DNA from: Eledone cirrhosa | Taxonomy: Eukaryota | NCBI GenBank assembly: GCA_964016885.1 | Contig: OZ024741.1 | Location: 108,934,001-108,998,000 of the forward strand | Direction of reading: 5' to 3' | Length of the DNA stretch: 64,000 nt | Shown here: positions 4,941-5,714 of the stretch, piece by piece | Layout: every line of letters begins with the position of its first letter | How positions within the stretch are numbered: the stretch's first letter is position 1 | Translations under genes and position numbers: made by a program | Notes under the pieces: model-generated | Told to the model about the DNA's origin: nothing | The model's database searches: none | The model's input: only the letters and a program-made list of their open reading frames with translations

Positions 4941-5714
4941 ATATAAATGAGAGGTATAGAGATTGTTTTAGCAAGAAGCTAACGGCATTCTATAACATAT
5001 ATGCGACTATAACGTCAAGATGGGAAAAGTAGTTAACGAAAGATTTAGGAAAAATAACTCAAACTCATCTCAAAAGAGAATCAGGATATAAATTCATCCA
5101 CAGAATTTAGTAAAATCCAGGGAAAATCTATAGACCTTTAACTCATGATAAAATAAAGTTTGAAACACTTATCCTTCAATTTGGAATAACATCAAATGCT
5201 CTGTATAGTCTTAAAAGACTATTTCATGAAAACTTTCAGTGGAGATGGTCACGGTTGGAATTTCAATCATCAGCAGAGCTCAACAGAAAACCAGGGCTCT
5301 CACAGTAATATAATCCGAAAAAGGGAATTCTAAAACTGGCTAGTTCGCCTTCATGTGTATTTAGGAAAAAGCACATGAGGAAAAAACGGGGCTAGTGACG
5401 TCAGGATGGAAGTGAATGTTTATTTACAAGAAATAGCAGTCAAATACATTCTGAAAAAAAATTCAGTAAAATAGCAATAATTATCACAGTTTTTATGAAA
5501 AAAACCGGGATTAGTCACAGATAGTTTAAGCACTCTAGGAAAAGAATCCGAGTATAAATATAAATGAGAGGTATAGAGATTGTTTTAGCAAGAAGCTAAC
5601 GGCATTCTATAACATATATGCGACTATAACGTCAAGATGGGAAAAGTAGTTAACGAAAGATTTAGGAAAAATAACTCAAACTCATCTCAAAAGAGAATCA
5701 GGATATAAATTCAT
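4941..5714 (-). mobile_element. Non-coding, direct-repeat-bounded element in (TA)n carrying an HHR (retrozyme / Penelope pLTR-like)
   Basis: Identical 157-bp repeats at 4941-5097 and 5558-5714 (period 617), (TA)n on both sides, HHR inside. Confidence 0.75.
5198..5279 (-). ncRNA. Type I hammerhead ribozyme
   Basis: Minus strand: GCUCUG-CUGAUGA-U-UGAAA...UUUCA-U-GAA-AUAGUCUU/AAGACUAU-A-CAGAGC; 6-bp stem I, intact CUGAUGA and GAAA boxes, AUA triplet. Confidence 0.8.

Follow-up and report, generated by a model that had tools for sequence, protein, structure and literature searches.

The repeat described here is a young, non-coding family which is built from units of about 630 bp, carries one type I hammerhead motif per unit and lies in TA tracts. 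It has one fixed and one variable end, seamless tandem units, and variants that are shared across whole arrays. On its sequence, which displays the features of this class that were testable here, the family is best read as a metazoan non-LTR retrozyme, and we think it somewhat probable that its copies were made by a Penelope-type reverse transcriptase (RT) running round a circular RNA. The retrozyme class is already known; the family is new, with an unusually clean insertion record of one site and one arm. We found no published account of the family or of retrozyme insertion ends in the literature, and the family may be catalogued in supplements, Repbase or Dfam. The return of animal retrozymes to DNA has been proposed, not shown, to occur by the RT of a Penelope-like element (PLE) acting on a circle, and PLE integration is itself only partly worked out. 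From a young family of hundreds of near-identical insertions, exact predictions follow for the base at which copying starts, the point of ligation, the size of the circle and candidate enzymes with open ORFs.

One copy is located in the window, i.e. the whole stretch of 64,000 nucleotides that was analysed. In window coordinates, its parts are the following.

4877 to 4943, no strand: (TA)n target tract at the fixed end, which would be the priming end
4944 to 4953, plus strand: fixed start of the element (unit position 1, the 3' side on the ribozyme strand), with the joined TA + TAAATG junction; at least 787 exact junctions genome-wide, control 0; 21/21 internal-motif loci
4944 to 5560, minus strand: one full unit, non-coding, 617 bp here vs about 630 bp in the family
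5198 to 5279, minus strand: type I hammerhead motif, as called by descriptor and covariation; U.U at the stem II base; predicted cleavage 5204/5203
5461 to 5462, no strand: site of a 13-nt deletion private to the window copy
5553 to 5562, plus strand: TA-like stretch where units meet, with the closest (TA)5 match of the unit (9/10), predicted to be single-stranded on the RNA; candidate priming site; at least 367 exact tandem junctions genome-wide
5561 to 5714, minus strand: partial second pass, unit positions 1-154, i.e. the terminal redundancy; the variable end meets (TA)n via a short AT overlap
5715 to 5771, no strand: (TA)n tract at the variable end, then (GA)n

An exact repeat search recovered the direct repeats reported in the initial annotation, identical over 157 bp (4941-5097 and 5558-5714) with a spacing of 617 bp; their first and last few bases are common to the adjoining TA tracts. 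The annotation was also right in placing (TA)n on each flank and in finding no ORF, the longest stop-to-stop frame among those wholly inside the element being 64 aa. It had taken 617 nt as the length of the monomer. Full units of the family measure 627-633 bp (40 scored of the 2043 candidates found by a monomer search of the genome), and the 13 bases that follow position 5461 in 29/29 other aligned units are missing from the window copy, in which the deletion junction is the single occurrence genome-wide. The value of 617 is thus due to a private deletion, and the RNA circle predicted at 617 nt would in the family be of about 630 nt and come from two-ribozyme loci, not from the window copy. 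This copy, probably the product of 1.25 rounds, has only one ribozyme and is therefore unable to release a monomer: it is a dead end. Within the unit, at 5398-5405, a palindrome TGACGTCA, which we take to be CRE-like, is kept in 3/7 aligned units across subfamilies. No promoter was identified; a bacterial promoter scan has no bearing on this eukaryote.

Elsewhere in the window, a 45-bp minisatellite (12113-15859; 83 copies, 93% matches) and an interrupted (TA)n tract of 6.7 kb (21511-28189; GC 7-9%) were observed, together with a PIF1-like helicase fragment that may be a Helitron remnant (56247-56750). RT and zf-RVT fragments, likely LINE remnants, are present at 33067-34844, 39679-40500 and 2682-3194; they gave no tblastn match to PLE proteins. 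At 3515-3875 and 4415-4554 lie a two-copy repeat with a period of about 203 bp, presumably SINE-like, and a 28-bp tandem repeat.

The complete type I hammerhead that had been assigned to the minus strand (5279-5198) is present in its full layout: stem I GCUCUG/CAGAGC, the core CUGAUGA, a stem II with U.U as its first pair and a 30-nt loop region, GAAA, and a 7-bp stem III. Its AUA at 5206-5204 gives a predicted cleavage between 5204 and 5203. The hammerhead descriptor matched only once in the whole window, and in relaxed form it matched 0/2000 dinucleotide shuffles of the monomer. Rfam returned no hammerhead family at gathering or at E<=10, and the isolated motif of 101 nt folded no better than shuffles (z -1.0); covariation was therefore tested, and the call is based on our own descriptor plus this covariation. 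An examination of 17 sequences that represent three subfamilies showed pairing in 94% of cells and three compensatory pairs, of which stem I has two and stem II has one; because these sequences form two main groups, the changes amount to three events and not to 20. With such changes, the ribozyme has been conserved across 30% divergence, and its invariant core shows no inherited variant in 118 loci. Among 70 first units, stem II opens with U.U in 36, of which the window copy has one, and with A-U in the other 34. That U.U marks the youngest subfamily only was considered and dropped, because both states recur in old and young subfamilies. In the axolotl, a U.U stem II base is reported to accompany weak monomer cleavage, 22% in 1 h (PMC7229834).

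Genome counts were made with exact patterns and are lower bounds. At least 787 TA-joined starts (control pattern 0), at least 533 internal-motif sites and at least 367 tandem junctions were counted, as well as at least 578 starts of a subfamily about 80% alike; in older relatives, of 66-73% identity, the start and the ribozyme are unchanged. Near-identical copies are dispersed over many contigs, and arrays range from 2 to about 80 units. The family has a GC content under 50% and no LTR layout, and its terminal redundancy varies in length. These numbers sustain the earlier view of a non-autonomous, non-coding retroelement, which proves to be multi-copy and for which tandem multimers were expected in a genome search of the monomer; they are contrary to a single-copy locus. 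In contigs of four runs of unknown kind, organism A has the family with its tandem junction as well as diverged relatives, and organisms B and C have short pieces at low depth; we do not use them as evidence.

The same search had been expected to reveal circularly permuted start points. Instead, one end is fixed: in a sample of 30 loci picked by an internal motif, unit position 1 is the start in all 21 distinct insertions. Alternative starts amount to one at unit position 48, one at 597 and none for a pattern covering about 547-577, vs 787 at position 1. The fixed start falls in the unit's best (TA)5 match (9/10) and within 17 nt for which a circular fold of the ribozyme strand predicts no pairing. 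This fold has a minimum free energy (MFE) of -132.6 vs -107.9 +/- 4.2 for 30 shuffles (z -5.9); the opposite strand gives -125.2. The start junction carries no poly(A). Within arrays, the junction between units retains a non-TA base, which indicates that this junction is templated.

The other end was followed at 89 loci, namely the first 90 of 100 listed start junctions minus one local duplicate. Insertion lengths vary from 25 to 4659 nt (median 249), with 44 of the 89 loci above 260 nt, 19 above 630 nt and ten above 966 nt, hence with two ribozymes. On this basis, the family qualifies for what Li et al. call 'active', i.e. at least two consecutive intact ribozymes; the window copy, with one, would not be so classed. 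Up to 730 nt, drop-off amounts to 0.11-0.31 per 100 nt; it shows no step at the unit end (0.21 just before vs 0.26 just after) and does not rise with length, numbers above 900 nt being small. The cleavage site was passed in 68 of 71 approaches, which corresponds to a stop rate of 4.2% vs a mean of 4.3% for equal windows, and no scar is left there (among 123 units, each of positions 255-263 is changed at most once). The 19 copies that exceed one unit all return to its start. Copies thus cross the cleavage site and the unit junction unbroken, as the circular or multimeric template suggested in the initial annotation would give.

At the far end, (TA)4 occurs within 35 nt in 78/87 cases and directly adjoins in 63/87. 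The AT overlap has a mean of 2.4 vs 0.92 expected, and pile-ups of far ends at 27, 59 and 68 fit such an overlap; likewise, 11 of 30 ends in the middle subfamily are at 58-59. Candidate target-site duplications were noted at 10/89 loci, that of L036 alone being long and informative, since (TA)n precludes resolving them. At L068, L070, L091 and L101, short foreign or locally copied stretches lie between the far end and the TA tract, as template switches leave.

Indirect information on the template was obtained from the variants within arrays, in a survey of 118 of the at least 787 loci, 48 of them with two or more units. Inherited variants were found in every covering unit of their array in 100 of 121 cases, and most of the 21 exceptions appear, by inspection, to be recurrent or to adjoin homopolymers. 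Among locus-private variants, 112 are in one unit, 15 in some units and 10 in all units; the last include variants common to the first and terminal copies of the 1.3-mers L036 and L124, which were therefore most likely on the template at both passes. This is automatic for a circle, while a linear multimer needs homogeneous donors.

L002 and L004 have common flanks and a common end and differ by one unit, and in L073, L129 and L030 the units alternate with a two-unit period. A satellite of 50 kb (G000:C2:376,628,992-376,679,374, L300-L305) is composed of about 80 family units with a mean pairwise difference of 3.8%, showing that a retrozyme insertion has grown into a satellite. It contains block duplications, with near-identical pairs at lags 3, 5 and 8, and an intact core in 52 of 75 analysed units. 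The fixed start and the variable far end are kept, the start flank being a short TATAAG repeat, not (TA)n. As long arrays show later local duplication, array length is no evidence of rolling synthesis.

A cycle combining a circle with a PLE was proposed by Cervera and de la Pena in 2020, and circular RNAs from such repeats have been shown in coral, mussel and axolotl (PMC7229834). For the present family, loci with two or more ribozymes would be transcribed on the ribozyme strand, self-cleavage would free a monomer and a host ligase would close the circle. Since two ribozymes are needed for release, the circle of about 630 nt must derive from two-ribozyme loci (10/89 sampled). The endonuclease of a Neptune-type PLE would nick (TA)n, and the nicked TA end may pair with the single-stranded TA-like site of the unit, 260 nt from the ligation point, thereby priming the cDNA. 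Synthesis would continue with a roughly constant drop-off per base, beyond one round in about a fifth of cases, until the cDNA end joins the far TA end via short AT overlaps; some insertions would gain or lose units locally afterwards. PLE RT is reported to initiate internally in vitro; for the anole PLE, unprocessed RNA was used with two start sites, neither of them homologous to the cut DNA (PMC11167929). Internal initiation of this kind supports internal starts, and also an uncleaved multimeric template.

Autonomous PLEs with open Neptune-type ORFs occur in the same genome, where GIY-YIG domains are abundant (10596 candidates, 150 scored). Three Neptune-type families with long open ORFs (L171, L172, L176, L179 and L182; L177 and L229; L174, L178 and L185) each have two sites, 40-60 nt from one another, at which they pass into (TA)n; L171 and L172 share 97.7% identity. 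In two of the families there are ribozyme-like motifs with a first core strand that deviates from CUGANGA, and many unrelated type I hammerhead-like motifs lie near PLE loci (L172:5694-6234, L180, L181, L188, L189, L161, L170), some of them in tandem 459 bp apart. No nucleotide link of the unit to PLE 3' regions was detected by blastn at 40 of the 150 scored GIY-YIG loci, and local alignment to 16 PLE 3' UTRs, set against 100 shuffles, produced one low-complexity match only. Similarly, no PLE sharing the unit was found among 24 ribozyme-motif loci or 30 middle-subfamily loci. Two candidates were rejected: a by-eye likeness of the unit to the end of the L171 family was not significant, and a PLE ORF in L229, 1.7 kb from a copy, belongs to a PLE that ends first in its own TA tract.

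The family has the fixed end, truncated far end, partial tandems and microsatellite target of PLE-type insertions. The tail signature of PLEs, i.e. two RT starts 30-60 nt apart and a frequent inverted arm, was not found in it, and the PLE partner is inferred from class traits. Inverted arms occur at 1/89 loci. The rare two-armed insertions (L013:497-2130; L274:1505-2238; L295:661-2145) have second arms that start at 48, 143 and 326 at the three loci inspected, and L013 resembles a case of twin priming, the second arm beginning one base beyond the point where the first ends. Of the one-armed copies, two have their starts at 295 and 427. As its single start and single arm are unlike the tail signature, the family provides a natural control for the origin of the tail.

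It is less probable, but a serious rival reading, that the template was instead an uncleaved linear multimer from tandem arrays, copied by the same PLE-type enzyme from an internal TA-like start with random stops, while the ribozyme would be weak or act later and donor arrays would be regenerated by local duplication. In vitro, unprocessed RNA predominated as the substrate and insertion persisted with ribozyme mutants (PMC11167929), and U.U at the stem II base in about half of the units is in line with this, but the ribozyme has been kept with compensatory changes across the divergence given above. Local gain and loss of units is real, as shown by L002 vs L004 and by the block duplications of the array of about 80 units; however, the homogeneity of arrays (100/121 haplotype-defining variants) would need a repeated one-unit bottleneck, and by inspection no two arrays in the 118-locus sample have the same ordered mosaic. 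Similarly, the arrangement in L013 resembles twin priming on one long linear template, whereas a drop-off which does not rise with length, with small numbers above 900 nt, argues against such a template.

We consider it improbable that a circular or multimeric template was mobilised by a LINE-type RT pairing with TA targets, and not by a Neptune-type PLE. One fixed end and a truncated far end are the footprint of a LINE as well. Hardly any trace of the PLE tail or of a two-armed footprint is seen, no PLE homology was found (40 GIY-YIG loci; 16 3' UTRs) and RT fragments with zf-RVT domains exist in the window, but the start is internal to a continuous template and its junction is without poly(A). 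Furthermore, the traits of PLEs include type I hammerheads and TA targeting (PMC8557442), and when PLE ends were compared, the inner 3' ends of the three local families were seen to lie at a run of pyrimidines with a TA-like stretch after it, a likeness noted by eye and not significant. Finally, that the copies are truncated pLTRs of an autonomous PLE, as the initial annotation had allowed, or DNA-level tandem duplications without an RNA intermediate of their own is very unlikely and largely refuted: the fixed end, variable end and TA targets are as in truncated PLE copies (PMC8557442), and retrozymes are related to pLTRs in Xenopus (10.64898/2026.07.22.740005), but the 19 longer copies all return to the start of the unit, no locus among the 89 + 21 + 24 + 30 (partly overlapping sets) continues into an ORF, that of a PLE included, and DNA slippage does not account for near-identical copies that are scattered over many contigs and share one precise start.

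Returning to the Penelope-type RT on a circular RNA, we tentatively put forward a telomerase-like rolling retroposon, in which the nicked TA microsatellite would pair with an exposed TA-like patch on the ribozyme-made circle and prime a single Penelope RT. If true, a retrozyme can drop the two-site, two-arm pathway of PLEs and move by one homology-guided priming event.

Compared with known systems, the family resembles metazoan non-LTR retrozymes in its non-coding, AT-rich, head-to-tail units with one type I hammerhead each and without an LTR layout (PMC7229834; 10.64898/2026.07.22.740005), in the presence of PLEs in the same genome and the highly paired predicted circle (PMC7229834), and in the U.U at the stem II base, as in axolotl HHR_Amex2 (PMC7229834). 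At 630 nt, its unit exceeds the 150-450 bp range of one account (PMC7229834) and lies within the 51-972 bp of the other (10.64898/2026.07.22.740005). The accessible parts of these two sources describe neither strict (TA)n targeting nor a single fixed internal start, nor a smooth decay of lengths. Expression, cleavage and circles have been shown for metazoan non-LTR retrozymes, whereas for the present family they are predictions (PMC7229834; 10.64898/2026.07.22.740005). Li, Clavereau and Pollet (2026) link retrozymes to pLTRs and favour local amplification (bioRxiv 10.64898/2026.07.22.740005).

With plant LTR retrozymes (PMC4918200, as summarised in PMC7229834 and 10.64898/2026.07.22.740005), the family shares the size range and a ribozyme-released circular intermediate, which in its own case is predicted. 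These plant elements are defined by a type III hammerhead inside fixed LTRs; here the ribozyme is of type I and lies outside the terminal repeat, and as the length of the redundancy varies from copy to copy, there is no LTR.

Like the endonuclease-bearing PLEs of the Neptune and Nematis type (Craig et al. 2021, PMC8557442; Frangieh et al. 2024, PMC11167929), the family has partial tandems, truncation at one end, a hammerhead near the fixed end, microsatellite targets and an RNA-internal start. Unlike them, it has no ORF, no tail of 30-40 bp or second start, and only rare inverted arms (1/89), and its ribozyme is of canonical size, not minimal (PMC8557442; PMC11167929). Its start is homologous to the target, in contrast to that of the anole PLE in vitro (PMC11167929). 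Unlike the endonuclease-lacking Athena and Coprina PLEs and telomerase, the family encodes nothing and its target is internal (TA)n, not a telomere overhang, with priming that would be based on pairing (PMC8557442). What it has in common with them is a short internal RNA stretch near the hammerhead which matches a DNA repeat, and which is proposed to guide priming (PMC8557442).
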